A program made the position numbers and the translations under genes. Of a stretch of DNA of 35,415 bases, positions 5,399 to 33,671 are shown one piece after another. Under the pieces are notes generated by a model. That model had not been told where the DNA came from. It was given only the letters and a program-made list of their open reading frames with translations, and did not search any database. Position 1 is the first letter of the stretch, and every line of letters starts with the position of its first letter. The DNA comes from Candidatus Sericytochromatia bacterium (lineage in GTDB: Bacteria > Cyanobacteriota > Sericytochromatia > UBA7694): positions 1 to 35,415 of the forward strand of contig JBIKWL010000056.1 in assembly GCA_044356335.1 (NCBI GenBank), given 5' to 3'.

Positions 5399-6178
5399 TT
5401 AGGGGGTTTGAGCACAGCCTTCATACGTGCTGCCCCGGAAAGAAATCGTGGTTTTGAAAGCATAATTTTGGGCCCCATCTTGGCAGGGCTCTTTGCTCAA
5501 GGTCACTTGCATGGCCTCGGTTTCGGGGGAACGATAGCGAAAGGTGTATTTGGACTGGTTTCCGTTCTGATCTGGGGCTTGCCAGAGCAGGCTTTCGACA
5601 ATTGGGAATTCCCCTTCCATAGATTTAAAATAGACCGTATTTTTGGTCAAAACCCGCAAGGTCCATTCGGGGCTGTGTCCAAAAGCGACAAAATCGCTTT
5701 TAAAACAGGTGCCGCTATTTAGCCAGGACTGTACCACCTTTACCGTCTTCACGCTCAGGGATTTGCGGTAGCCAGAGGCAAAGCCCTCACCAGAGGTCAA
5801 CGGGGCCATTGAGCCTGTGAGTTCAACATAGACAGGTTCGAGATCGATCAGGCCTTTGAGCGCTGCGTGGCGCTTGAGTAATTCTCCGTTGGGATCTTCA
5901 ACCCAGATTTCTTCTTTGCTGCCACAGGCCTTAAACAATTGCAGGCCCTCTCCGGCCATAAACAGGCCCTGAAAGATGCCGACTTCGGTAACGGGATCTG
6001 GGGCACCAGAAGCTTTAAGTTTGGTGGGTTTGGCAGAAGCGATTGGGTCATTGCTCCCAGTTATGGTTGAGGCTGAGCTAACCGGCCCAGGAGAGGAGGA
6101 AGCTTGGGTGTTCTCTTCGGTAGGGGGGCAACCGCAAAGCAGCAAACAAATGAGAAGCAAGCCCAATTTTAAACGCAT
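5399..6178 (-). CDS. Hypothetical lipoprotein (start moved to the ATG preceded by a perfect SD)
   Basis: The ORF track start at 6205 is GTG. A perfect AAGGAG lies 6 nt before the ATG at 6178 (minus), giving MRLKLGLLLICLLLCGCPP, a lipobox-type signal. The mature part is Ser-rich, then a Cys-containing globular domain. Fold family not recognised with confidence. Confidence 0.55.
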   Translation of the reverse strand: MRLKLGLLLICLLLCGCPPTEENTQASSSPGPVSSASTITGSNDPIASAKPTKLKASGAPDPVTEVGIFQGLFMAGEGLQLFKACGSKEEIWVEDPNGELLKRHAALKGLIDLEPVYVELTGSMAPLTSGEGFASGYRKSLSVKTVKVVQSWLNSGTCFKSDFVAFGHSPEWTLRVLTKNTVYFKSMEGEFPIVESLLWQAPDQNGNQSKYTFRYRSPETEAMQVTLSKEPCQDGAQNYAFKTTISFRGSTYEGCAQTP

Positions 6179-6353
6179 TCTATTCTCCTTTTTCAGACCA
6201 CCCACTACTGTTGCATACTAACTCCAATTGCCTCGGTTCGCCAAGTTTGTTCTTACGCTTTGGGCCTGTATTGCGATTGAACTGCGACAGTGGCAGACTG
6301 AAGTCACAGGGTTTAGAAACGCCCACCCAGTTAAACGAAAAAGGAAACTGCCT

Positions 6354-7541
6354 ATGGAGCTGAGTTTTGTTTTGGGTTGGCTCATCTCTGCCTTCTGGTT
6401 GGGTCTGATTTGGCGTCTCTTTCAACCCGCCATTCAGACTTCCTTTGAATTGGAACCTTCGGCTTGTGCTTATCCAGAGCCAGAGAGCTGGCCAAAAGTT
6501 TCGATTGTGGTGCCTGCTCGCAATGAGGCTCATGCCATTTCAGCTTGTCTGGAAAAACTCCTGGCTCAAGACTATCCCCATTTGGAGATCATTGCTGTCA
6601 ATGATCGTTCCCAAGATGCCACTGGGGAATTGATGACAACCTGGGCAAACCAAGATGATCGCTTAAAAGTTCTCACCCTTACAGACAAACCGGCTGATTG
6701 GCTGGGCAAAACCCATGCCCTCTGGCAAGGGGTTCAATCTGCATCCGGTGAGTGGCTTTTGTTTATGGATGGGGATATTTTTCTGGCTCCCGACTGCTTG
6801 AAGCTGGCTGTGCGTTTTGCCGCAGGGCGCAAAGTGGATCAACTCAGTTTGTTTCCCGACTTTCTGCCTGGCGGCTATTGGGAAAATCTGTTTATCTGCC
6901 ATTTTGGAATTATGTTTTTTTCGGTTTACGATCTTTCAGGACTTGCGGATCCTCAGCGCAAAAACAGTTATACGGGGATCGGTGCCTTTGGACTTTTCAA
7001 GCGGGAAAGTTATTTGGCCTGCGGCGGTCACCAAACCCTGGCCCTCGAGGTGATCGATGATGTGCAATTGGGGCGTTTGCTCAAACGCGAAGGGTTTAAA
7101 ATTAGCGCGCTTTTTGCCCGACAGCGTGTCCAATTGCGTTGGCATCAGGGCGTCAAAGGCCTGTTTAAAGGTTTGGAAAAAAATGCCTTTGCAGGGATTC
7201 GCTATTCTTGGTCTCTTTTGCTGCTCTTTACAGCCACCGTGGGGGCATTTTATCTTTTGCCCTATCTGGCTCTATTGCTCTGGCCAGACCTGCGCAGCAG
7301 TGGGTATGCAACGGCTCTGCTGCTGTTACATGGCCTCTATTTTGTTAAAGGACAAGAATTCTGCAAAAATCCCTGGATCGGTCTGGCTGCCCCTCTGGGA
7401 GCTGTACTCAATTTGGCCACATTTTGGCATTCTGCCCTCAAAACCCAATTGCAAAAGGGCGTTTATTGGCGGGAGGACTTTTACCCTCTCAAAGCCCTTA
7501 AAGCCCAGATGTATCGTGGCAAGCGCTTGACAAAGCCTTGA
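6354..7541 (+). CDS. Membrane-bound family-2 glycosyltransferase with Q/RxxRW motif (ceramide-glucosyltransferase/HpnI-like processive GT2)
   Basis: AAGGAA lies 7 nt upstream of ATG 6354. The N-terminal TM helix is MELSFVLGWLISAFWLGLIW. The GT-A core is SIVVPARNEAHAISACLEKLLAQDYPHLEIIAVNDRSQD...LFMDGDIF. QRVQLRW matches the QxxRW motif. Hydrophobic C-terminal TM segments are present. The track start at 6228 is a TTG without an SD and is rejected. Confidence 0.8.
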   Translation: MELSFVLGWLISAFWLGLIWRLFQPAIQTSFELEPSACAYPEPESWPKVSIVVPARNEAHAISACLEKLLAQDYPHLEIIAVNDRSQDATGELMTTWANQDDRLKVLTLTDKPADWLGKTHALWQGVQSASGEWLLFMDGDIFLAPDCLKLAVRFAAGRKVDQLSLFPDFLPGGYWENLFICHFGIMFFSVYDLSGLADPQRKNSYTGIGAFGLFKRESYLACGGHQTLALEVIDDVQLGRLLKREGFKISALFARQRVQLRWHQGVKGLFKGLEKNAFAGIRYSWSLLLLFTATVGAFYLLPYLALLLWPDLRSSGYATALLLLHGLYFVKGQEFCKNPWIGLAAPLGAVLNLATFWHSALKTQLQKGVYWREDFYPLKALKAQMYRGKRLTKP

Positions 7542-8023: not shown

Positions 8024-10684
8024 ATGACACGATTAAATCTGCCCACCCGCTTTGACTTTGCCGCGGTGGAAGCAAAATGGAACCAGATTTGGGATGAAAA
8101 AGGCTATTTCCATCCCGAGGTCAATCCAGAACAAAAACCCTATACAATTGCCTTTCCTCCCCCCAATGTGACGGGTGTTTTGCACATGGGCCATGCCTGC
8201 AATGCCACTTTGCAAGACGTCTTGATTCGCAGCCGCCGCATGATGGGTTATAACACCCTCTGGATGCTCGGCACGGATCACGCAGGTATTGCCACCCAAA
8301 TCATGGTCGAACGCAAGATCAAAAAAGAATTAAACAAAACCCGCCACGATCTGGGCCGCGAAGAATTTCTCAAACATGTTTGGGCCTGGAAAGAGGAAAA
8401 CGGCAACGCGATTATTAACCAAATGCGGCGCTTGGGGGCTTCTGGCGATTTTGACCGGGCCCGGTTTACGATGGATGCCGACTATTCCCGTGCGATTCGC
8501 AAGGTCTTTGTGGAATGGTACCAAAAGGGGCTGATTTACAGAGGCGAGCGCTTGGTTAATTGGGATCCCGTCGGCCAAACCGTACTCAGTGATCTCGAAA
8601 TCGAGCAAAAAGAAGAAAACGGCCAACTTTACCATATTCGCTACCCACTCAGCCAAGATCCCAGCCAATATGTGGTGGTCGCCACCACCCGCCCCGAAAC
8701 CCTACTGGGTGATTTGGCTGTGGCCGTCAATCCCAAAGATGAGCGTTATACCGCCTTGCTTGGGCAGAGCTTAAACCTGCCTCTCACCCAGCGCCAAATC
8801 CCAATTCTGGCTGACGAAATGGTCGAGCGTGAGTTTGGTTCTGGTGCGGTCAAAATTACTCCCGCCCATGATTTTAACGATTGGGAATGCGGCCAACGCC
8901 ACAATTTGGGTCTTTTACAAGTCATTGGCCAAGATGCCTGTATGAATGAAAACGCCCCCGAAAAATACCAGGGGTTGACCCGCGAAGAGGCCCGCAAAGC
9001 CGTTGTGGCAGATCTCGAAGAGGCAGGTCTGCTCGAAAAAGTAGAGGCCCATGTGTATATGCCCAGTCGCTCCGAGCGCAGTGGCGCGATTATTGAACCC
9101 CTGCCCCTGGTGCAGTGGTGGGTAAATATGAAACCCCTGGCAGCCCCTGCGATTGAAGCGATTCAGTCTGGCAAGGTGCGTTATACCCCCGACCGCTGGT
9201 CGCGAATCACGGTCGAGTGGCTTGAGAATATTCGCGATTGGTGTATTTCTCGCCAGCTTTGGTGGGGCCATCAGATTCCCGTTTGGTATGATGCCGAGGG
9301 TCAAATTGCCTATGTTGGCATGGAAGATCCCTCAGAGCAAGACCTCAGTGCCAAAGGCTGGACCCGCGACGAAGACGTGCTCGACACCTGGTTTAGTTCT
9401 GCCCTGTGGACCTTTGCAACCCTCGGTTGGCCCGACGAGACACCCGAATTAAAACAATTCCACCCCACAGCGGTCCTCTCAACCGCCCGCGAGATCCTCT
9501 ATCTTTGGGTGGCCCGCATGATTTTTAGCTCACTGCACTTTTTGGGGGAAATTCCCTTTCAAGACGTGTTGGTACACGCCACCATCTTGACCAAAGATGG
9601 CAAGCGCATGAGCAAATCCAAAGGCACGGGTTTAAACCCCTTGGAAATGCTCGACAAATATGGGGCTGATGCCTGCCGTTTCTGGCTGGCCGAAGCGGCG
9701 ATGAGTGGGCAAGACGTGCGTTTTAGCGATGAAAAACTCGAAAACGGGCAGCATTTTGTCACCAAGATTTGGAATGCCTGCCGTTTTGCCTTGATGAATT
9801 TGGAGGATTTTGATCCCGATTACAGTCTCGATCTCAGCCGCTTGGAACTGGCCGACCGCTGGATTCTCAGTCGTTTGCGCAGCACCTTGGCTTCAGTCAC
9901 GGATTGTCTCGGCAGCCACAATTTGACCCAGGCCACCAAAGACCTGTATAGCTTTGTCTGGACTGAGTTTTGCGATTGGTACCTGGAAATCTGCAAGCCC
10001 CGCCTGCAGGGTGAAGATCGCAATCAGGTTCAAGCCATTCTCGTGCTTTGTCTCGACCATTTCCTGCGCATGGCGCATCCTTTTATGCCTTTTGTCAGCG
10101 AGGAACTCTGGAGTGAAGGTCTTAAACCGATTTGTCCCCAAATGCAGGGCGAACATCTGATTATCGCTCCCTGGCCCAGCGTAGATAGTCTCCCTGGTGC
10201 CGATTCCCAAGCAGAGAGTGAAATGGCTCTGCTGATGGAGACCATACGTGTGATTCGCAATCTGCGCATGGAAGTCGGTGTGCCCGCCAATAAAGAGGCT
10301 GAGACCGTCTTTCTGGTTAGCGAATCTCATTCCAGCCGTGATTTGCTGAGCCAAAATCTGGGCATGATCGGTCGCATGGGCAAGGTCTCGGGGGTGAACG
10401 TGCAAGCGGAACAGGCCGAAATCGACCAAGCTGCCCATGGCGTCAGTTTGGGTATTCAGGTGATTTTGCCTTTGGCGGGCTTGATTGACCTCGACAAAGA
10501 GCGTGAGCGCTTAAACAAAGAAGTTCTCAAACTCGAAAAAGAAATGAAGGGGTTGCAATCCCGACTGGAAAATCCCAATTTCCGCAGCCGTGCTCCCCAA
10601 GACGTGGTGGCAGAAGTCGAGGCTCAATTGGCCAATTTGCAATTTCAAGTGCAAACTTTACAAGAAAGAGTTGCCAAGCTGTGA
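8024..10684 (+). CDS. valS: Valine--tRNA ligase (class I aaRS) with C-terminal coiled-coil
   Basis: HIGH-region PPPNVTGVLHMGHA and KMSKSKGT are both present. Length 886 aa. The coiled-coil C-terminus (LNKEVLKLEKEMKGLQSRLENPNF...) is typical of ValRS. GAGG lies 5 nt upstream of the ATG. Confidence 0.97.
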   Translation: MTRLNLPTRFDFAAVEAKWNQIWDEKGYFHPEVNPEQKPYTIAFPPPNVTGVLHMGHACNATLQDVLIRSRRMMGYNTLWMLGTDHAGIATQIMVERKIKKELNKTRHDLGREEFLKHVWAWKEENGNAIINQMRRLGASGDFDRARFTMDADYSRAIRKVFVEWYQKGLIYRGERLVNWDPVGQTVLSDLEIEQKEENGQLYHIRYPLSQDPSQYVVVATTRPETLLGDLAVAVNPKDERYTALLGQSLNLPLTQRQIPILADEMVEREFGSGAVKITPAHDFNDWECGQRHNLGLLQVIGQDACMNENAPEKYQGLTREEARKAVVADLEEAGLLEKVEAHVYMPSRSERSGAIIEPLPLVQWWVNMKPLAAPAIEAIQSGKVRYTPDRWSRITVEWLENIRDWCISRQLWWGHQIPVWYDAEGQIAYVGMEDPSEQDLSAKGWTRDEDVLDTWFSSALWTFATLGWPDETPELKQFHPTAVLSTAREILYLWVARMIFSSLHFLGEIPFQDVLVHATILTKDGKRMSKSKGTGLNPLEMLDKYGADACRFWLAEAAMSGQDVRFSDEKLENGQHFVTKIWNACRFALMNLEDFDPDYSLDLSRLELADRWILSRLRSTLASVTDCLGSHNLTQATKDLYSFVWTEFCDWYLEICKPRLQGEDRNQVQAILVLCLDHFLRMAHPFMPFVSEELWSEGLKPICPQMQGEHLIIAPWPSVDSLPGADSQAESEMALLMETIRVIRNLRMEVGVPANKEAETVFLVSESHSSRDLLSQNLGMIGRMGKVSGVNVQAEQAEIDQAAHGVSLGIQVILPLAGLIDLDKERERLNKEVLKLEKEMKGLQSRLENPNFRSRAPQDVVAEVEAQLANLQFQVQTLQERVAKL

Positions 10685-10849
10685 TACAAAAAGTAAATCC
10701 GTACTTTTTTTCAGCTAAATTGCATGTAACAATGAGACCATGGGTAATTTATACATGGGCATATTAAGCCAAGCCAAGATGAAATTAGTTCAACCATGAC
10801 CTCCGTTTCTCTCACCTTTGTGGATGTTTGCGTGTTGGGACAGTAAATT

Positions 10850-11668
10850 ATGACAGTTTTGCTTGAGGGCGAATTGGCCTCGATTTCACTGTTTAATTTA
10901 TTACAGTTTATTAAGCTGGAGCAAAAGAACTGTCTCTTTCGCGTGGAGGTCAAAGAAGTGGCCCAAGAGGCCTTTGTCTATTTTGACAAAGGCACCATCA
11001 CTCACGGTCGCTTAAATCATTTATTGGGCGTAGATGCCCTTTACCGCTTGATAGGCTGGTGGTCTTCTGGGCATTTTCAGATGACTGGGCTGACAAATGC
11101 AGAATTGCCCATTCCGAATATCAACGTCTCTCTCGATGCGGTACTGATGGAAAGTGCCCGTTATATGGACGAATTCGCCAAATTACGTGAAAAATTACCC
11201 AACTTGACCAGTGGCTTGCGTTTTTCAGATAAAGCTTTACAAATGGCTTCTGAAGGGCGCTTGCCCGATTTCACCAAACAATTACCACGTTCGTTTACGT
11301 TAGCGCGTTTCTTTGAAATGTGTCCGTTTAATCAGTGGGATTCCCTGCAATTTATGAACGAGATGGTCAAACACAAAGCCTTTTTGGTGGGGGTTGCCGG
11401 TGAAGATCTCCGAGCCACAGTTGTCCTCACCCCAATTGACTCTTTAGAGAGCATCGTGATGGAGTTTGTGGGGATCGAATCGAGCCATCAAATGTTGGAA
11501 GAATCCCTGCTTGAATTGGGCTTTGATCGCTTTCAAAAATTTGGTTTTAATCAATTATTGGCTGTGGCAGATAAATTGATGGACCGGATTGCGCCATTGA
11601 TGAAGAGTGAAGACGAGGTTCAAGAGGCGATGTACCGTCTGCGGGCGCGCATCACCAGTTTGCTTTAG
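10850..11668 (+). CDS. DUF4388 (PATAN-associated) domain protein, first gene of a tightly packed 4-gene cluster
   Basis: N-terminus GELASISLFNLLQFIKLEQKNCLFRVEV fits the DUF4388 signature (G.L..l.l.dlLQ.l....sG.L.v). The stop at 11668 is 2 nt before the next ATG. Confidence 0.6.
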   Translation: MTVLLEGELASISLFNLLQFIKLEQKNCLFRVEVKEVAQEAFVYFDKGTITHGRLNHLLGVDALYRLIGWWSSGHFQMTGLTNAELPIPNINVSLDAVLMESARYMDEFAKLREKLPNLTSGLRFSDKALQMASEGRLPDFTKQLPRSFTLARFFEMCPFNQWDSLQFMNEMVKHKAFLVGVAGEDLRATVVLTPIDSLESIVMEFVGIESSHQMLEESLLELGFDRFQKFGFNQLLAVADKLMDRIAPLMKSEDEVQEAMYRLRARITSLL

Positions 11669-11670
11669 CC

Positions 11671-12438
11671 ATGTTTACTTACGACATTTACGCCCCTTGG
11701 TATGATTTGCAAAATGAGATGGACGATGTCGAGTTTTATCTCGACAGCTTGAGAGAGTATGGCGGACCCGTCTTGGATGCGGGTTGTGGCACAGGTCGTC
11801 TCTTGTTGGCATTTGCCCGTGAAGGTTATGAAACCGCAGGTTTTGATACTTCTCAAGAAATGCTGGATCGGGCCCGCAAAAAATTTGCTGCAGAAGCCCC
11901 TGATGTACGTGAACGTGCTGCGATTAGCTTTGGAGACATGCGCTCATTTCAGCTCGGGCGCAAATTTAAAGTCGGTCTGTTTGGCTGCAATACCTTTCAG
12001 CACTTGCTCACCAATCAGGATCAAGATCAGGCTCTGCAAAGCATGCACAACCACCTCGAAGACGATGGCATTCTCCTCTTGCAGACCACCAATGTGCGCT
12101 TCCATGAACACGATCCCGATGTACTCTACCACCGGGGCCGGGAATTTAACCCCGAAACCAATCAATGGGTGGACGGCAGCTATGTTTACCACTACCACCA
12201 ACACCTGCAGATCATGCAATTCACGCTGCTTTTGGATATTATCGGCGAAGACGATCGGATTTCGCGCAAACAAATTGTACTCAATCTGCGTTATACCTTT
12301 CCTCCTGAATTGGAGCGCATCCTGGCAAGCAACGGTTTTGCCTTGGAGGCCCTTTATGGGGATTTTTCGCGCAATCCCGTTAGCCGGGACAGCCCCTGGA
12401 TTATTGCCCAGGCCCGCAAACAACGCCTGAATATCTAA
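11671..12438 (+). CDS. Class I SAM-dependent methyltransferase
   Basis: Motif I VLDAGCGTGRLLLAFAREGYETAGFDTSQEMLDRAR is followed by the acidic post-I loop and motif II/III spacing typical of the Rossmann MTase fold. Confidence 0.8.
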   Translation: MFTYDIYAPWYDLQNEMDDVEFYLDSLREYGGPVLDAGCGTGRLLLAFAREGYETAGFDTSQEMLDRARKKFAAEAPDVRERAAISFGDMRSFQLGRKFKVGLFGCNTFQHLLTNQDQDQALQSMHNHLEDDGILLLQTTNVRFHEHDPDVLYHRGREFNPETNQWVDGSYVYHYHQHLQIMQFTLLLDIIGEDDRISRKQIVLNLRYTFPPELERILASNGFALEALYGDFSRNPVSRDSPWIIAQARKQRLNI

Positions 12439-12440
12439 AT

Positions 12441-14378
12441 ATGAAAACCCCGCCAACGTTGTTTTGTCTGCTGCTTTTGGCAAGTTGCAGCTCAGAACTC
12501 CAAGGCGATTGGCAAGTGCGAACGGTTGTCAACGGTCAATTCCTTAAATTGGCGAAATCTTCCCCGACAGCAGACACTCCTCGCAAAGGTTGGCAACCCG
12601 AGGGGCTCGCTGTTTCCCCTGAGGGCTTGGTCTATGTCAGTGATCGCGAGAATCACCGGATTTTGCGCATTTCCCCCACAGGCGTGGTGCAAGAACATGC
12701 TGGCAATGGTGAGGCCGGAGAACAAGATGGAACCGGAGATAAGGCCCGCTTTCGCAACCCCGCGGGGCTTTCCCTGGGAAGCGATGGGCAACTTTATCTG
12801 GCCGACAGTGGCAACCATGTCTTGCGCCAAATCTCTGCCAATGGAGAGGTCAAGACCGTTGCACTCAGCCGCCAAATCGAATTTAAAACCCCTTTTTCGG
12901 TTTTGGCCGGCCCGGATAAAAGTTTGTATGTGGCCGACAGTGCCAGTGGGCAAATTTTTTCACTGGCAGAACAGGCAAATCAGGTAAAACAGGTTTTGCA
13001 AACCGCCCCCACCCTCTTACCGGAAGCCTTGGCCTCAGACAGCTCTGGCCGTTTGCTCTATTCCGACCTACAAGGACTCTGGCGCTTGGAACACAACGCA
13101 TCACGCACCCTCTTGCGCCGCCACGACAGCCAATTGTTGCGCGTGCGCAGCCTGATTTCAGACGGAAAAAATGGCTATTTTCTCAGTGATCCTTATTTGC
13201 ACAGGGTTTTACACTGGGTCCCCGGCGCAGCTTTGGAAGTGATCGCCGGCGGGCCCGATGCCGGCCAAAAAGACGGCAAGCCCGAAGAAGCCCGTTTTGC
13301 TTTTCCTGGCAGCTTGGCTCGGGGGCCTGCAGGTGAATTGTATCTGGCCGACACACGCAATAACCGCATTTGCAAATTGACCCCCAATGCCCAGGGCAAG
13401 TATCAGGTGAGCACCTTGGCCCGCAGTGGCTCCCAGGGCTTTGGCGAACGCCGGGCGGGTGAAGATCTGAGTTTGCCACATGGCGTGCTCTTTGACTCCC
13501 GGACGGAGCAATATATTGTCAGCGATTATTTGCACAATCGCCTTTTCAAAATCTCGGAGGATGGCATTGCCACTCCCTGGTTTGAGCCCTCTGAGACCAA
13601 CGGAGAACCTTTGGTATTGCCTGCAGGTTTGGCCCAAGGCCCCGATGGCAGCATTTATGTCTCTGGTTCAGGCCGCCACCGTATTCATAAAATCTCCCCC
13701 GAGGGCAAAATTTCGGTATTGGCAGGCAGCGGTCAGGTCGGATTTAAAGATGGAAAAGGCAAAACCGCTCAATTTTATTTGCCGTTTGGCTTGGCCGTGG
13801 GGCCCGACAACAGCGTTTTTGTTGCCGATCAGGGCAATCACGCGATTCGAAAAATCGCCAGCGATGGTACTGTTACCACCTTGGCGGGCAACGGTGAAGC
13901 CGGTTGGCAAGATGCACAGGGAAGCGCTGCCCGCTTTAATAAACCCTCAGGGGTCGCTTTGCACCCCGACGGCAGCCTCTGGGTGGCAGATAGCTGGAAT
14001 CACCGCATTCGCAAAATAACGCCCCAGGGCCAGGTCTCAACCGCTGTGGGAGAGAAAGTGCCAGGGATGGCAGATTTTGACCCCCAAAGAGATCAGCCAA
14101 ACAGCCTCTATGTTCCCGAAGGGCTGGCCATCAACGCTGCTGGACAGGTCTTTATTGCCGACAGTTGGAATCACCGCATACGCAAATGGGATCCTCAAAC
14201 CTCGCGCTTGCAGAGCTTAGCGGGCAACGGAAAATTTCTCAATTTTGGTTCGGGTTTTGCCGATGGGCGTGGCCAGATCGCCCATTTTAGTCAGCCCAAA
14301 GGGGTGGCTTTGGGCCCCCGGCGCCAATTGCTGGTTGCAGATACGGGGAATAACCGCATTCGGACCATGGAACCATGA
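12441..14378 (+). CDS. NHL-repeat (six-bladed beta-propeller type) lipoprotein
   Basis: MKTPPTLFCLLLLASCSS carries a lipobox. There are at least 8 NHL-like blades with the (A/S)D.GNHxIRKI signature (ADSGNHVLRQI, ADTRNNRICKL, ADQGNHAIRKI, ADSWNHRIRKI x2, ADTGNNRIRTM). The start lies 2 nt after the MTase stop. Confidence 0.85.
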   Translation: MKTPPTLFCLLLLASCSSELQGDWQVRTVVNGQFLKLAKSSPTADTPRKGWQPEGLAVSPEGLVYVSDRENHRILRISPTGVVQEHAGNGEAGEQDGTGDKARFRNPAGLSLGSDGQLYLADSGNHVLRQISANGEVKTVALSRQIEFKTPFSVLAGPDKSLYVADSASGQIFSLAEQANQVKQVLQTAPTLLPEALASDSSGRLLYSDLQGLWRLEHNASRTLLRRHDSQLLRVRSLISDGKNGYFLSDPYLHRVLHWVPGAALEVIAGGPDAGQKDGKPEEARFAFPGSLARGPAGELYLADTRNNRICKLTPNAQGKYQVSTLARSGSQGFGERRAGEDLSLPHGVLFDSRTEQYIVSDYLHNRLFKISEDGIATPWFEPSETNGEPLVLPAGLAQGPDGSIYVSGSGRHRIHKISPEGKISVLAGSGQVGFKDGKGKTAQFYLPFGLAVGPDNSVFVADQGNHAIRKIASDGTVTTLAGNGEAGWQDAQGSAARFNKPSGVALHPDGSLWVADSWNHRIRKITPQGQVSTAVGEKVPGMADFDPQRDQPNSLYVPEGLAINAAGQVFIADSWNHRIRKWDPQTSRLQSLAGNGKFLNFGSGFADGRGQIAHFSQPKGVALGPRRQLLVADTGNNRIRTMEP

Positions 14379-16108
14379 AACAATTTAAATTAGGGGCCTC
14401 ACTGTTTCTCCTCTGTTTGAGTGCCTGTGAGTCCTTGCCCGATCTTCCGTCCTCACAATCTCTTCAGCCTTTTGCACAGAGTACTACAAGCACTACAACA
14501 GGCCCTGCGGGTTTGCAAATTGAGCCCTTTCAATTGATGTTTAGGCAGCCCAGTGAACGCCAATTGGCTTTGCTCAAACAGCGTTGGCAGGGTGAGGTCC
14601 GCGATCAGATGCAGATTGGCAAACAAGACTGGTTCTTGCTGCAATTTTCTGCTGCCGCCCTGCCCGAAAGCCTCTACAGTGCATTACCCGAGGCCTGGCA
14701 GGCGCGAGAACTTCAAGATTTGCAGCAAGAACTGTCACAAACCCAATGGCAAACCCTCTTGCTGGCAGAAGATATCCGCCGCGAAGCGGGCTTTCAGACC
14801 GGACAAATCCAGCTCAACCCCCTGGCCCAATTGCCCCAAACCCAGCCATCAATGTCACAACAACCCCCCTCTTTTAACGATTTGCAGACAGGTTTGGCAG
14901 GCTCAGAGCCTGGCTGGTGGCGGCGTGAAACCGGTGTCGAAAGAGCCTGGAATCTCTCAATTGGCACAGCTGTACGTGTGGCTTGGCTGGATGTGGGTTT
15001 TAAACGCCACCATCCCGAAGTGGAGCGCCGCTTAATTTTCACGGGTGACAATAACCAAACCCTGGCCTGGAAAGACAAAGCCCCTGAGAGCATTGAATTG
15101 CCTGCAGGGGATCATGGGGCGGCGTCGATCATGGTGGGTTTTGCCGAAAGGCACAATGGTGTGCCCAGTGTTGGGGTGGCCCCCAATGCCCAGGTTTTGC
15201 CCTATGTAGCGGGCAGTGTCTGGGAAGCTGCCAGAGCATTAAAAGCCGCGGCAGCAAAAAAGCCCGACGTGATTGGCATGAATTTTGCCTGGCCGATGTA
15301 TCCCGGCTGGGAAAAACTGACGGCTTATTCTGAATACCTATTGCTCAAGGCTGTGATTCAAGAATTGGGCCAAGCAACCCATCTGCCTTTGGTCATTCCC
15401 GCGCACAATTATGGCGAGCCGATCACCGGCGGCCCCCGCGAGTGGTTTCCGATCAATTTGGCCGCCACCCAGGCCAATGTATTGGGCGTAGGTGGGGTTG
15501 AATTTAAAGATGGCAAAAAATTACAGGTTTGGTTTAACCCGGATATACTCACCGGTTACAATTCACGAGGCTCGAATTATGGCGCTGGTCTGATCTGGGC
15601 TCCTTCCGTGGCCCTCGACATCGCAGGTTCAGATCCTGCCGGGGTTATCCCGAATCAAATGAGTGGCACCAGCGCTTCTGCGCCATTTATGGCGGGTGTG
15701 ATGGCCTTACTGCGCTCCCGTTGCCCAGATTTAACCGCCCGTCAGCTGATTGACTTGCTCTTAAACAATGGTAAAAGCCTCGATGGCAGCCAGATATTGG
15801 GCAAACCGGGTGCCACTGTGCCCTTTGTCCAGGCCGATTTGGCTTTGGAAGCCTGTCTGCGGGCTTCGGGCAAAGATCCAACTCAATACCGGGCACAGCG
15901 CTTCAAGGGCATTTTGGAAAGGTGGGGTGATGGCTTTTGGGCCTTAAAAACAGAGACAACCCGTTTCAAGCTTTTGCCTACCCTGGCTGAATTGCAGCCA
16001 GGGTATCCCCAGCTCTTAGAGGGCAAAGCTGTGTCCCTGCGGGGATGGCAAAAGCTCCCCGGACAGATGTCCGAGGAGCTTGAGGTTTTGGAACTGGTTG
16101 CCGATTAA
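14375..16108 (+). CDS. Subtilisin-like serine peptidase (S8 family) lipoprotein with N-terminal propeptide-like region
   Basis: MKQFKLGASLFLLCLSAC carries a lipobox. Catalytic triad contexts are AWLDVGF (Asp), GDHGAAS (His) and SGTSASAPFMAGVMALL (Ser, classic GTSxAxP). The ATGA overlap of 4 nt with the NHL gene indicates translational coupling. Confidence 0.8.
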   Translation: MKQFKLGASLFLLCLSACESLPDLPSSQSLQPFAQSTTSTTTGPAGLQIEPFQLMFRQPSERQLALLKQRWQGEVRDQMQIGKQDWFLLQFSAAALPESLYSALPEAWQARELQDLQQELSQTQWQTLLLAEDIRREAGFQTGQIQLNPLAQLPQTQPSMSQQPPSFNDLQTGLAGSEPGWWRRETGVERAWNLSIGTAVRVAWLDVGFKRHHPEVERRLIFTGDNNQTLAWKDKAPESIELPAGDHGAASIMVGFAERHNGVPSVGVAPNAQVLPYVAGSVWEAARALKAAAAKKPDVIGMNFAWPMYPGWEKLTAYSEYLLLKAVIQELGQATHLPLVIPAHNYGEPITGGPREWFPINLAATQANVLGVGGVEFKDGKKLQVWFNPDILTGYNSRGSNYGAGLIWAPSVALDIAGSDPAGVIPNQMSGTSASAPFMAGVMALLRSRCPDLTARQLIDLLLNNGKSLDGSQILGKPGATVPFVQADLALEACLRASGKDPTQYRAQRFKGILERWGDGFWALKTETTRFKLLPTLAELQPGYPQLLEGKAVSLRGWQKLPGQMSEELEVLELVAD

Positions 16109-16210: not shown

Positions 16211-17647
16211 TTATTTTGCAAGACGCTCTAAGAGGCTCTGAAGTTCCCCCAAAGCCTTAGAATAGGCCTCAGAGATACGGTATTTGCGGGTTCCACGCCC
16301 TTCGAGCAAGAAGTTTTGACCATTCACTGTCACTTCCAGTTTTTCCACACTGCGACATTCTTTGGTCTGGGGGGCGTCTGCGGGAATGGCTTCCAATTGC
16401 AGAAAGAGCCCCTGCAATGCTGTGCTATTGAGTAATTTTTGGACAGACTCAATTTCGCCATTGCTTAAAGTCCGGCTCTGAACCGGGGGCGGACCCGCCA
16501 CCAGGGTTTGGGCATTTTCAAGGGCCCAGGTAAAAGAACCGTTGGTTTTGAGCTCATAGCGGGTATAACTTTCCTGCCCACATTCCCCTTCGACAGTGAC
16601 TTTGAGGGGCAGGGTATAGAGTTGTTTTCCCACATTCTGATGGCGATCGGCCAGACCCTTTAAATGGCTGTCTAACTTCATCAGGGCGTTGCGATAGGCC
16701 TCTGTGTGGACAAACTTACGCCCGTTGAGGTCATAGGTTTTGGCTTGATTCTGAACCATCAAACTGAAATTTTTGACAGTGCGGCATTCCAGGGTTTGGG
16801 GGGCATCATCGGGTACGGGTTTGGATTCTGCCCTCAGTTTTTCGAGGTTGAGTTCAGCAATCAAATTTGCCAATTCACCCAACTCTTGGCTGGTCAATTG
16901 CCGGGTTTGCAGGCCTGTTTGGGGCCCGCCTGGAGCGACGGGTGCATTGGGATCGGCCAGAAAGCGAAAGAGTCCCGCAGGCAAGACTTCATAGAGAACC
17001 TGTTCACCCATATCACATTCTCCGTTGCCCGTCACTTTCAGGGGCAGGGCTGTGTTTGTATTGGACTGAGGCGGGCTGGCAGAGGGGCTGGGATCCGCCA
17101 TCGGGTTGTTTTTGAGGTTGTCGAGGAATTCCCGCAATTCTTTCATGGCTGCGGTATAAGCTGCTGTATGAATCAATTTGCGGCCATTGCTGTCGAAGCG
17201 GGTGGCTTTGCCATTGACGCTCAATTCAGCGACTTCGATTGTGCGGCAGTCCGCGGTCTGAGGGGAGCCCTCGGGCACGACGGTGTCTGCTTTGGCCAAC
17301 TCTGCCAGGTCCAATTTTTTGAGCAGTGTTTTGAGTTTGTTTTGCTCTGTATTTGAGAGCTTGCGGCTCTGTAAGGGGGGCTGGGTGGTTTCCATGCTGC
17401 CTGGGGCGGGGACTTCCGCATAGCTGAAGGTGCCATCGGCTTTGACTTCATATCGGGTGTAACTGGGCATCTGGCACTCACCTTCGTGAATCAGCTTAAG
17501 TGGCAGGCCGTAAATACCCGAGTCTGTTTGGCCAATTTGACCAATTTGGCCCAAAGACAGGCCATTGCATGCTGTTAAAGGCAGGGATAGCAGACAAAAG
17601 CTGGAGGCAATTAACAGACTGGATTTTAATGTTTGATTGAGTATCAT
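16211..17647 (-). CDS. Lipoprotein composed of three tandem ~135-aa internal repeat domains, each with a conserved Cys pair (unknown domain)
   Basis: The start is moved to the ATG at 17647, which has a perfect AAGGAG 6 nt upstream (MILNQTLKSSLLIASSFCLLSLPLTAC, lipobox). Repeats are at roughly nt 17114-17518, 16643-17047 and 16214-16624. They share PLK(L/V)..EGEC...Y.(L/V)...G.F...Q.R.L...E......L.......P.DAPQT.ECR...........G..........GRK..H.EAY..A...L...L. Confidence 0.65.
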   Translation of the reverse strand: MILNQTLKSSLLIASSFCLLSLPLTACNGLSLGQIGQIGQTDSGIYGLPLKLIHEGECQMPSYTRYEVKADGTFSYAEVPAPGSMETTQPPLQSRKLSNTEQNKLKTLLKKLDLAELAKADTVVPEGSPQTADCRTIEVAELSVNGKATRFDSNGRKLIHTAAYTAAMKELREFLDNLKNNPMADPSPSASPPQSNTNTALPLKVTGNGECDMGEQVLYEVLPAGLFRFLADPNAPVAPGGPQTGLQTRQLTSQELGELANLIAELNLEKLRAESKPVPDDAPQTLECRTVKNFSLMVQNQAKTYDLNGRKFVHTEAYRNALMKLDSHLKGLADRHQNVGKQLYTLPLKVTVEGECGQESYTRYELKTNGSFTWALENAQTLVAGPPPVQSRTLSNGEIESVQKLLNSTALQGLFLQLEAIPADAPQTKECRSVEKLEVTVNGQNFLLEGRGTRKYRISEAYSKALGELQSLLERLAK

Positions 17648-17694
17648 GGGAGGCTCCTTAAGTGACGTTGATGATAATTTCATTATCTAAGATT

Positions 17695-32252: not shown

Positions 32253-33671
32253 ATGAGCAGCCGCCTTGCCTATCAGTCCCCTGAATTCACCGCCGCCGCC
32301 GCGGACCCTCAGGACCTGCAAAAATGGGAAGAAACCCAATTTGCCCTCTATCGCAAACGCACAGAAGATGCTAAAACCAGTCAGAGTGATCTCCTGGCCT
32401 GCTCCGAATTGGCCATCCGCAACAAAGATGCAAGCTGTGCCCAAAGTTGTCTGGAGCGCAGCCTCAAGCTCAATCCCCAAGAAGCGGATGCGGTTTATTT
32501 ACAAGCCCTTTTGGCCCTGGCTCAGAACCAATCAGAGACTGCTTTGAGCCAATTGGAGGCCTTGGCCCCCACTCTGCCCAGCTCAGGAGCCGATTCTGCC
32601 CGCGTCTGGCGTCTTTTGGCCCAGGAGCGCCTGCGCCAAAAATCAGATTTGCCTGCAGCTGTCGCTGCCTTTGCCAAAGCCTGCGAAGTTGTCCAAGCCC
32701 CAGATTTTTTACACACCACCACCCGCTCTTCAGATGCGGTTAGCGCAGATATGCTCTCGTTTGACTTTTTGCTCTTCGACCGCTTGTATGCTTGGGAAGG
32801 GGGCAAAGCCCCTCTGCGCTTGGTTGCCTTGGCGACAGGCCCACAAGATCAGCTCTATTTGCTCGACAATTATAACCGCCTGATTTTTCAATTTGATGCC
32901 AATGGCAAATTTGAGCGCGGTATCAGCGAACGCCAATTGGCCATGGGGCAATTTTTACATCCTGAGGCCCGCTGGGAACTCTCAGATCTCTGTGTCGGGC
33001 CCAATGGCCATATTTATTTGGCAGGCAACCGAGATGTAATTGGGGTCTTCAGCCCCGATTGGAAACTGCTCAGAACCTATTCCGCCCCAGCATCAAACCG
33101 TCCACTGCGTCCCATTTCGCTGGCAGTTGATGCCCAAAATCAGCTCTATGTACTCTATTTGCACATGGAAGGCATTCATGTCTTTAATGCTCAGGGCTTT
33201 CACGAAGGGGCCTTTGGCAATAACACCACCATGCCCCAGAGCGGCAAAAATTATTATTGTGGCCTGGCCGTCGACAAAGCCAAACGGATCTATCTTTACG
33301 ATCGTGAAAAAGTCCAGGTCTTTCACAGCGAAACCCGTGAGTGGCTCAAAACCTTGGATTTGCCTGCGGGCAAAAGTCTCGATGACGGAGATTACCCCTT
33401 TTGTTGGAACGGCGCAGCAATTGACCCAGATGGCCTACTTTGGTTGGCTGATACCGCCAATAACCGGGTATTGAACCTCAAAGAGGGAGAAATTTCAGCC
33501 CCTTTGCCCAAACTGGATCCAAAATTACAGAATTTGTCCCATCCTTTTGATATAACTTTTGACAGCCAGGGCCGTCTGTATCTGGCAGATACCCAACGCG
33601 CCCGCGTTTTAAAATACGAAGCGCAAAAATGGTCCCAGGTCTTTGGGCATCCCACCTTTGAAGCCGTTTAA
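32253..33671 (+). CDS. Protein with N-terminal TPR-like helical region and C-terminal NHL-repeat beta-propeller
   Basis: The N-terminus has TPR-like helices (CAQSCLERSLKLNPQEADAVYLQALLALAQNQSETA). The C-terminal blades carry NHL-like signatures (LYLLDNYNRLIFQF, LLWLADTANNRVLNL, LYLADTQRARVLKY). Confidence 0.6.
   Translation: MSSRLAYQSPEFTAAAADPQDLQKWEETQFALYRKRTEDAKTSQSDLLACSELAIRNKDASCAQSCLERSLKLNPQEADAVYLQALLALAQNQSETALSQLEALAPTLPSSGADSARVWRLLAQERLRQKSDLPAAVAAFAKACEVVQAPDFLHTTTRSSDAVSADMLSFDFLLFDRLYAWEGGKAPLRLVALATGPQDQLYLLDNYNRLIFQFDANGKFERGISERQLAMGQFLHPEARWELSDLCVGPNGHIYLAGNRDVIGVFSPDWKLLRTYSAPASNRPLRPISLAVDAQNQLYVLYLHMEGIHVFNAQGFHEGAFGNNTTMPQSGKNYYCGLAVDKAKRIYLYDREKVQVFHSETREWLKTLDLPAGKSLDDGDYPFCWNGAAIDPDGLLWLADTANNRVLNLKEGEISAPLPKLDPKLQNLSHPFDITFDSQGRLYLADTQRARVLKYEAQKWSQVFGHPTFEAV

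Follow-up and report, generated by a model that had tools for sequence, protein, structure and literature searches.

A valS-linked gene cluster of one Sericytochromatia clade that joins a PATAN-domain protein and a methyltransferase to two predicted lipoproteins, an NHL-repeat protein and an S8 subtilase

Introduction

Do four tightly packed genes, two encoding cytoplasmic proteins and two encoding predicted lipid-anchored proteins, make up one operon, and does that operon serve one function? The question was raised by a stretch of 35,415 nucleotides (nt) of contig JBIKWL010000056.1 (assembly GCA_044356335.1) of Candidatus Sericytochromatia bacterium, the whole of which is called the window here. 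Between positions 10,850 and 16,108 the window carries genes for a protein with a PATAN domain (DUF4388), a class I S-adenosylmethionine (SAM)-dependent methyltransferase (MTase), an NHL-repeat lipoprotein and an S8 subtilase lipoprotein, referred to below as PATAN, MTase, NHL and S8. Sericytochromatia are the non-photosynthetic sister class of the oxygenic cyanobacteria, and we know of no member that has been cultured and genetically studied. A reading made from the sequence alone (the sequence-only reading) had taken the four genes for one operon with coupled translation, to be checked by the recurrence of the gene order in other genomes, and had proposed NHL as a partner of the anchored protease. 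We followed up these proposals by comparison of related loci, profile and structure searches, and structure modeling.

Results

Gene order and operon structure

The open reading frame (ORF) list gave the four genes as follows (lengths in amino acids, aa):

10850–11668, + strand: PATAN/DUF4388 gene (272 aa)
11671–12438, + strand: class I SAM-dependent methyltransferase gene (255 aa)
12441–14378, + strand: NHL-repeat lipoprotein gene (645 aa)
14375–16108, + strand: S8 subtilase lipoprotein gene (577 aa)
14375–14378, + strand: ATGA stop/start overlap of NHL and S8, a putative translational-coupling junction

The ORFs, their coordinates, their strand and their intergenic distances of 2 nt, 2 nt and then a 4-nt ATGA overlap agreed with the sequence-only reading, and its domain assignments (DUF4388, SAM MTase, NHL and S8) were borne out by Pfam scores above cutoff. 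Tight spacing alone was common, as other gene pairs in the window overlapped too; it was conservation, and not spacing, that exceeded chance. The order valS-PATAN-MTase-NHL-S8 was found in every related locus that reached far enough. Nine loci held the complete order (L003, L005, L006, L012–L014 and L018–L020) and four were partial (L025 and L015–L017); across these independent Sericytochromatia loci the identity of S8 was 43–95%. Outside this block, on the valS side and on the S8 side alike, the neighbouring genes differed among lineages. Exact-match look-ups and the names of homologues assigned the window to Candidatus Sericytochromatia/Blackallbacteria. In L012, from a Blackallbacteria metagenome-assembled genome, protein identity to the window was 95–99% over five genes (valS and the cluster).

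The junctions were conserved as well. The NHL–S8 junction was a −4 overlap, either ATGA or GTGA, in 11 of 12 loci, the MTase–NHL junction ranged from −4 to +49 nt in 12 of 12, and the PATAN–MTase junction ranged from −4 to +21 nt among the loci compared. Within the cluster there were 4 promoter-like matches, with 4.6 expected from shuffled sequence, and 8 terminator-like matches, with 8.9 expected, and no strong Shine-Dalgarno sequence was seen ahead of the downstream cistrons. Since the genes were co-directional and their order was conserved, and since internal signals did not rise above chance, the operon reading stood, and the four genes very probably form a real operon. The pattern that would have refuted the sequence-only reading, an order not kept elsewhere together with internal promoters or terminators, was thus not observed. 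Coupled translation, as proposed before, was supported by the junctions, which were kept across class-level divergence, and by the lack of strong Shine-Dalgarno sequences.

Only 25 S8 homologues at cluster level, all full-length, were found among 5.8 billion proteins searched, and all those with a named source belonged to Sericytochromatia or Blackallbacteria. When 1.84 billion representatives were searched with a profile, just 8 orthologue clusters reached 480 bits or more. These results indicated that the cluster is an operon specific to one Sericytochromatia clade. All four domains are of known kinds. A literature search for such a gene combination in Sericytochromatia returned nothing relevant; in the literature that we searched, we found no description of the S8 subfamily, of the PATAN family that stands alone or of the pairing of PATAN with MTase, all of which are restricted to an uncultured class.

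valS and the upstream control elements

The sequence-only reading had overlooked the conserved neighbour of the cluster: valS was directly upstream of PATAN in 9 of 9 complete loci and in L025, and the genes before valS varied. In the window, valS and PATAN were separated by a spacer of 165 nt, and the following features were found:

8024–10684, + strand: valS, valyl-tRNA synthetase gene (Pfam), the conserved upstream neighbour
10688–10711, + strand: weak AU-rich hairpin with a T-run, terminator-like, just past the valS stop codon
10720–10733, + strand: motif TTGnnG[CT][AC]ACAAT, which may serve the four-gene operon as promoter or operator

The hairpin folded into an 8-bp stem followed by U7, the z-score of the whole region being only −0.88, and L006 had a strong GC hairpin at the equivalent position. 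The [AC]ACAAT core with its upstream TTG lay 56–122 nt ahead of the PATAN ATG in 9 of 10 loci and was kept even where valS was only about 64–68% identical to that of the window; the full motif occurred once in the window. Together, the conserved motif and the hairpin with its T-run after valS suggested that the four genes are driven by a promoter of their own, and valS is probably a separate transcription unit. The spacer also held a small ORF (MRPWVIYTWAY; 10732–10767, + strand), which was kept only in L012–L014, where the spacers are near-identical; because it was absent at greater divergence, it is probably not a gene. Downstream of S8, no hairpin better than shuffled sequences was found as a possible intrinsic terminator (z = −0.74). 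No structured RNA or riboswitch was found in the window by Rfam at the gathering threshold.

Composition of the cluster from two modules

The identities of the five encoded proteins to those of the window differed among the related loci as follows:

valS: 63–83%
PATAN: 61–80%
MTase: 68–78%
NHL: 36–55%
S8: 43–59%

PATAN and MTase evolved at the slow pace of valS, and NHL and S8 evolved fast. The identity of MTase homologues fell abruptly from 55% (314 bits) to 35% (141 bits), indicating that the MTase orthologues are a tight, lineage-restricted group. In L022, PATAN overlapped a 61%-identical MTase by 1 nt, and valS, NHL and S8 were not nearby. In sample SRR14610174, a 50%-identical PATAN homologue (L023) and a 55%-identical MTase homologue (L021) were located on separate contigs, which we assumed to come from one organism; the MTase homologue adjoined TrmO and a gene of the isocitrate/isopropylmalate dehydrogenase family. 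Around PATAN homologues of 33–43% identity, neither MTase, NHL, S8 nor valS was ever found within about 6 kb. Among the loci compared, neither NHL nor S8 occurred without the other.

From these comparisons the cluster looks like two modules, PATAN-MTase and NHL-S8, joined in one clade. The earlier view of the four genes as a single functional unit was not supported, in view of the PATAN-MTase pair that lacks NHL and S8 in L022, of the unlinked PATAN and MTase of L023 and L021, and of the distant PATAN homologues that stand alone. That the two modules are directly coupled in function we regard as rather doubtful.

Domain structure of the S8 subtilase and its distant relatives

In the primary sequence of S8, PF00082 (Peptidase_S8) matched with 68.9 bits (cutoff 21.8) at aa 197–468, and Foldseek assigned a probability of 1.00 to subtilisins. 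Pfam and the AlphaFold2 (AF2) model gave the following parts:

aa 1–18, nt 14375–14428, + strand: signal peptide and lipobox (...LCLSAC)
aa 49–150, nt 14519–14824, + strand: propeptide-like domain (AF2 model)
aa 154–178, + strand: disordered linker (AF2 model), its length varying between orthologues
aa 197–468, nt 14963–15778, + strand: catalytic domain (Pfam)
aa 508–576, nt 15896–16102, + strand: C-terminal beta domain ('GW'; AF2 model) with invariant G512 and W558

The peptidase S8 residues D206, H247, N345 and S433 were invariant in 22 sequences; they were assigned to the catalytic triad and the oxyanion Asn by the motifs LDVGF, DHG, AHN and GTSASAP and not by structural superposition. The intact triad predicts an active protease. 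In the lipobox L-S-A-C18, the Cys was nearly invariant (at least 90% of the 22 sequences). The AF2 model had a mean predicted local distance difference test (pLDDT) score of 70.7. Its aa 49–150 formed a beta-alpha-beta-beta-alpha-beta arrangement with an insertion (pLDDT 80–94), as in an I9-like prodomain. The longest Foldseek alignments, of more than 450 columns, were with fervidolysin, PvSUB1/PfSUB1, pro-subtilisin E and EpiP (E-values 1e-10 to 1e-13, sequence identity 13–20%). Of these, fervidolysin, SUB1 and EpiP are structures solved with the prodomain attached, as was pro-subtilisin E according to its title. The predicted fold and the length of these alignments were thus in line with the propeptide-like N-terminal region that had been read from the sequence.

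A prodomain, a catalytic domain and a beta domain are common to S8 and those pro-subtilisins that have C-terminal beta domains (fervidolysin, Plasmodium SUB1 and EpiP), whereas the profile match of S8 to subtilases of the PDB was confined mainly to the Ser motif, and two features of S8, its lipobox and its 'GW' domain at the C-terminus, were clade-specific. According to the lipobox and the model, the lipid anchor would lie on the prodomain side of S8, a point missed in the sequence-only reading; should the prodomain undergo the usual cleavage, mature S8 would therefore lose its anchor.

The profile search also gave a second tier of S8 relatives (120–221 bits) of 700–1500 aa, which matched from the prodomain through the 'GW' domain. 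Most of the 27 that were inspected start with lipoprotein signal peptides. A Pfam scan of the C-terminal extensions of nine of these relatives gave the following:

P0197: EPTP propeller, 182 bits
P0209: EPTP propeller, 128 bits
P0198: PD40 propeller, 84 bits
P0193: weak PD40 match, 18.5 bits, below cutoff
P0206: Laminin_G_3
P0187, P0189, P0190 and P0192: no Pfam match in the extension

The fusions to propellers provide support of the Rosetta-stone type for a working partnership between the S8 lineage and beta-propellers, support that is not specific to NHL.

Convergent with S8 was a gene on the − strand (16211–17683) for a predicted lipoprotein of 490 aa with three repeats of about 150 aa and paired Cys residues (GEC...YTRYE...PQT.ECR). 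It gave a faint DUF6438 match and kept its place beside S8 in the Blackallbacteria clade alone (47% identity in L003). This lipoprotein could be a substrate or an inhibitor of S8.

The NHL lipoprotein

NHL matched PF01436 with 218 bits and seven passing repeats in Pfam, as expected of an NHL-repeat propeller. Aa 1–16 (nt 12441–12488) represented a signal peptide with a lipobox (...LLLASC; L-A-S-C16), and Cys16 was invariant in 11 orthologues, in which the other invariant residues belonged mostly to the D-x-x-N-H-R blade motif. About 12 blade-like repeats at a spacing of 54–60 aa suggested two six-bladed propellers. Sequence matches in the PDB were generic NHL propellers (teneurin-like, SOQ1 and TRIM71), and the match to scyF_NHL of NCBIfam reached 116 bits (cutoff 350). 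The conserved lipoboxes of NHL (C16) and S8 (C18) agree with the earlier prediction of two lipid-anchored proteins, and Asp at position +2 was absent from both.

The DNA repeats within the region merely mirrored the NHL blades. A second NHL-repeat protein, with N-terminal TPR repeats, was encoded elsewhere in the window (32253–33671, + strand) and was followed by a gene for a peptide-binding protein of the SBP_bac_5 family (33694–35307).

The methyltransferase

MTase matched Methyltransf_25 with 60 bits, and Methyltransf_25, 23, 12, 11 and 31 were all above cutoff in Pfam. As expected of a class I SAM-dependent enzyme, it had an invariant G-x-G-x-G motif (G38, G40 and G42); H111, the conserved His within a ...NTFQHL... 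motif, was also invariant. In total, about 80–87 of 255 positions were invariant, depending on the alignment, including an N-terminal YDxYAxWYDxQN motif. The protein is cytoplasmic. The nearest solved structure in a profile comparison was CorZ (9SOT, 126 bits), which methylates the free N-terminal amine of myxarylin, a peptide that is made by ribosomes and modified after translation (RiPP). Further matches were CcbJ, MtfA, YunM, DesVI, CypM and TylM1, and the uncharacterised SAM MTases 3D2L and 1WZN ranked among the next. The best NCBIfam match, the daptide MTase (NF041820), reached 102 bits (cutoff 175), and neither biosynthetic genes nor a precursor were found at the locus.

From these relatives, which the sequence-only reading had not noticed, we infer that MTase is an amine N-methyltransferase. 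The matches to CorZ/BytZ (myxarylin), CypM, MtfA, CcbJ, DesVI/TylM1 and the daptide MTase take in the Rossmann core together with some of the C-terminal lid; unlike the genes of those enzymes, the MTase gene here lies outside any biosynthetic cluster and is conserved like valS. A 36%-identical paralogue was found in a ruvCA-uvrB housekeeping context. This context and the valS-level conservation favour a conserved cellular substrate over a natural product.

The PATAN protein and its relatives

PATAN matched PF14332 (DUF4388/PatA_N) with 52.7 bits (cutoff 25) at aa 6–108 (nt 10865–11173). Beyond this domain the protein had a helical, family-specific C-terminal part with a conserved YRLRARITSLL end. 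It is cytoplasmic. The N-terminal PF14332 docking domain is shared with PatA-type regulators (Anabaena PatA; Synechocystis PixE, PixG and PilG), whereas the receiver domain of those proteins is absent here, the helical C-terminal part taking its place; no Response_reg match was found in the PATAN protein. The family was restricted to metagenome bins that resemble Sericytochromatia.

In six loci from different metagenomes (L011, L032, L033, L035, L036 and L041), murJ, encoding the lipid II flippase, was directly upstream of PATAN homologues of 34–37% identity on the same strand. The murJ matches scored 242–265 bits, the PATAN gene was located at about 6001–6837 in most of these loci, and the opposite flank was not conserved. 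In L009, bacA/uppP was downstream of a PATAN homologue. The linkage to murJ suggests a possible cell-wall context for the PATAN family.

In L011 (GCA_036704085.1, labelled Stenomitos sp.), flgB/C, fliE, fliF and fliG were located a few kb from the PATAN homologue, which suggests that the contig is mis-binned and comes from a flagellated non-photosynthetic relative. The window itself contained a second, weak DUF4388/PATAN match of 27 bits at aa 157–202 of a 220-aa protein (22671–23333, − strand); its gene and an MMPL transporter gene of the other strand (23314–25611) overlapped by 20 nt at their starts.

Other genes of the window

An 817-aa protein (19302–21755, − strand) had a major-vault-protein shoulder domain (95 bits), an SPFH/Band_7 domain and a sub-threshold Vault_3 repeat. 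It is a bacterial MVP-like protein and was 95–99% conserved in the close relatives L012, L014 and L015. A 325-aa protein (18256–19233, − strand) had a sub-threshold WGR match and DUF1963, and a faint WGR match was also seen in a 1002-aa protein of L021 (2807–5815, − strand).

Discussion

The results raise the question of how the two modules of the operon might work. The model that we favour, with a confidence a little short of even, is a dentilisin-like lipoprotein protease complex that is co-expressed with a cytoplasmic pair of a PATAN protein and an amine N-methyltransferase. In Treponema denticola, prcB, prcA and prtP are on one mRNA, PrtP, a lipoprotein, is made as a preproenzyme that sheds its acylated N-terminal fragment upon activation, mature PrtP is held at the surface by the lipoproteins PrcA and PrcB, and the 70-kDa PrcA, encoded just upstream of prtP, is itself cut by PrtP (PMC8167434). 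The operon described here likewise ends in an S8 lipoprotein gene with a gene for a lipoprotein of about 70 kDa directly upstream. However, only the S8 fold is homologous: S8 scored 15.4 bits against denti_PrtP (cutoff 300), PrcA and PrcB, which are reported to occur in oral spirochetes only, lack the NHL propeller of the upstream protein here, and the cluster has two additional cytoplasmic genes. The cluster is therefore not a dentilisin complex, and the likeness is functional and architectural only.

A comparable arrangement is known from Escherichia coli NlpI-Prc and Pseudomonas aeruginosa LbcA-CtpA, in which TPR adaptor lipoproteins and S41 proteases control cell-wall hydrolases. These systems too combine a repeat-domain lipoprotein with an envelope serine protease; here the two would be an NHL propeller and an S8 protease. 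By analogy, the NHL-S8 pair may work like such lipoprotein-protease complexes without being homologous to them.

According to the favoured model, one mRNA would begin at the conserved motif that lies some 120 nt upstream of PATAN, an element that was observed and whose role as a promoter is presumed, and the conserved junctions suggest that the downstream cistrons would be translated by termination-reinitiation. NHL and S8, made together because their frames overlap by ATGA, would be exported and lipidated at Cys16 and Cys18, as their conserved lipoboxes predict. S8 would fold on its lipid-bearing I9-like prodomain, and autocleavage in the variable linker would free the catalytic part, which the 69-kDa NHL propeller lipoprotein may retain, position or feed, by analogy with dentilisin and in keeping with the propeller fusions. 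The earlier proposal that NHL is a partner of the protease is thus plausible in view of the conserved overlap and of the S8 relatives fused to EPTP and PD40 propellers, and we put the chance that NHL and S8 form a complex at about even.

For the other module, the PATAN domain has been reported to bind PilB1 and the N-terminus of PilC and to sit at the inner membrane (bioRxiv 10.1101/2021.06.11.447907), and PatA interacts with cell-division factors (PMC7380572). PATAN is a protein-protein docking domain that attaches to inner-membrane machines in cyanobacteria, and here the protein is paired with a slowly evolving MTase of the clade that methylates free amines. The pair may act at the inner face of the membrane, the links to murJ and the divisome pointing weakly to envelope growth. 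The same murJ neighbour and the binding of PatA to the divisome hint weakly that the likeliest targets of the protease are envelope or cell-wall-associated proteins, a claim whose chance we put well below even.

Several points weigh against the favoured model. Cleavage of the prodomain is assumed, the hint being the disordered linker of variable length at aa 154–178. PATAN and MTase are separable from NHL and S8 and from each other, and the tie between the modules may be mere co-expression. The murJ linkage belongs to a distant branch of PATAN homologues outside this clade. At their C-termini, large extracellular subtilases bear binding domains of many sorts (Laminin_G_3 of P0206 is one), so that the propeller fusions are suggestive and not specific. 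Finally, the organism is known only from metagenomes, and the expression, interaction and activity considered here are predictions.

The two modules could share a promoter by historical accident, PATAN-MTase having a housekeeping-like task, such as the methylation of a conserved protein or another amine, and NHL-S8 being an independent envelope protease. The PATAN-MTase pair on its own in L022, the unlinked genes of SRR14610174, the stand-alone distant PATAN homologues, the sharply different substitution rates of the two gene pairs and the MTase paralogue beside ruvCA-uvrB all speak for such an accident. Against it speak an MTase–NHL junction that stays within −4 to +49 nt in 12 of 12 loci despite reshuffled outer flanks, and the finding that no S8 of this family occurred without the other three genes where the contig was long enough; we consider it unlikely, while granting it an appreciable chance. 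Less probable still is a nutritional protease at the surface, by which S8 and the propeller would digest external protein for heterotrophy, PATAN-MTase being irrelevant. Two lipoproteins without Asp at +2, the fast evolution of NHL and S8, the presence among the S8 relatives of very large lipoprotein subtilases that combine several domains, binding domains included, and the precedent of dentilisin, which has nutrition among its roles, would fit this explanation, but the cluster is a single copy in a fixed operon beside valS clade-wide, whereas proteases used for scavenging are as a rule freely acquired, lost and duplicated. Nor does the operon include a peptide transporter, the SBP_bac_5 gene lying about 17.6 kb downstream.

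A module of type IV pili or type II secretion, in which PATAN docks onto a PilB/PilC-type machine, MTase adds methyl groups to the N-terminus that processing newly exposes on pilin-like proteins, or to another component, and the machine exports or positions the lipoproteins, would agree with the binding of PATAN to PilB1 and PilC at the inner membrane and with the methylation of free peptide N-terminal amines by CorZ, CypM and MtfA, the nearest relatives of MTase. We regard it as highly improbable, as neither the 35-kb window nor any of the related loci contained pilus or secretion genes, and the other conserved neighbour of the PATAN family is murJ and not a pil gene. Chemotaxis genes were likewise absent from the window. 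The idea of a RiPP or secondary-metabolite pathway, in which MTase would act as a peptide N-methyltransferase, S8 as the leader peptidase and NHL as a ScyF-like protein, drew on the best NCBIfam matches (daptide MTase and scyF_NHL) and on CorZ, a RiPP N-methyltransferase, as the nearest solved structure. It was rejected as largely refuted and retains a minimal chance: both NCBIfam scores were far under their cutoffs, S8 and NHL are predicted to be exported lipoproteins, and there was no conserved precursor ORF, small ORFs in the spacer being kept only among near-identical genomes. A core tailoring enzyme and an exporter were likewise not found. An anti-phage defence system was also rejected, its chance being negligible, since the PADLOC matches of the cluster proteins (58.8 bits for the MTase core to mad2, 21.6 bits for the subtilase and none for PATAN) were generic and weak and hit no specific model.

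The dentilisin-like model, if correct, would make the NHL-S8 pair a second, unrelated case of the design known from dentilisin: the propeptide bears the lipid anchor, and the mature subtilase has to be held by a partner lipoprotein. A further lead is a deep-branching S8 subfamily (lipobox, prodomain, S8 and 'GW' beta domain) that repeatedly teams with beta-propellers, either fused or, in this operon, separate. A stand-alone PATAN family beside murJ in one lineage and beside an amine N-methyltransferase in another would offer a handle on the role outside phototaxis of the PATAN domain, which is widespread and little understood. A bolder reading, which we count as a long shot, is that PATAN and MTase are a new protein N-methylation unit docked at the inner membrane and wired, in one clade, to a self-releasing lipoprotein protease/propeller receptor. 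Its targets might be, for example, the newly exposed N-termini of pilin-like or envelope-machine proteins independent of PilD, or a component of the divisome or the lipid II cycle, and events at the cytoplasmic face would then be coordinated with periplasmic proteolysis during envelope growth. Being as strongly conserved as a tRNA synthetase gene across the clade, the operon would provide an entry point into the envelope biology of Sericytochromatia. Even if none of these leads holds, the cluster is still a correctly delimited, lineage-specific operon.

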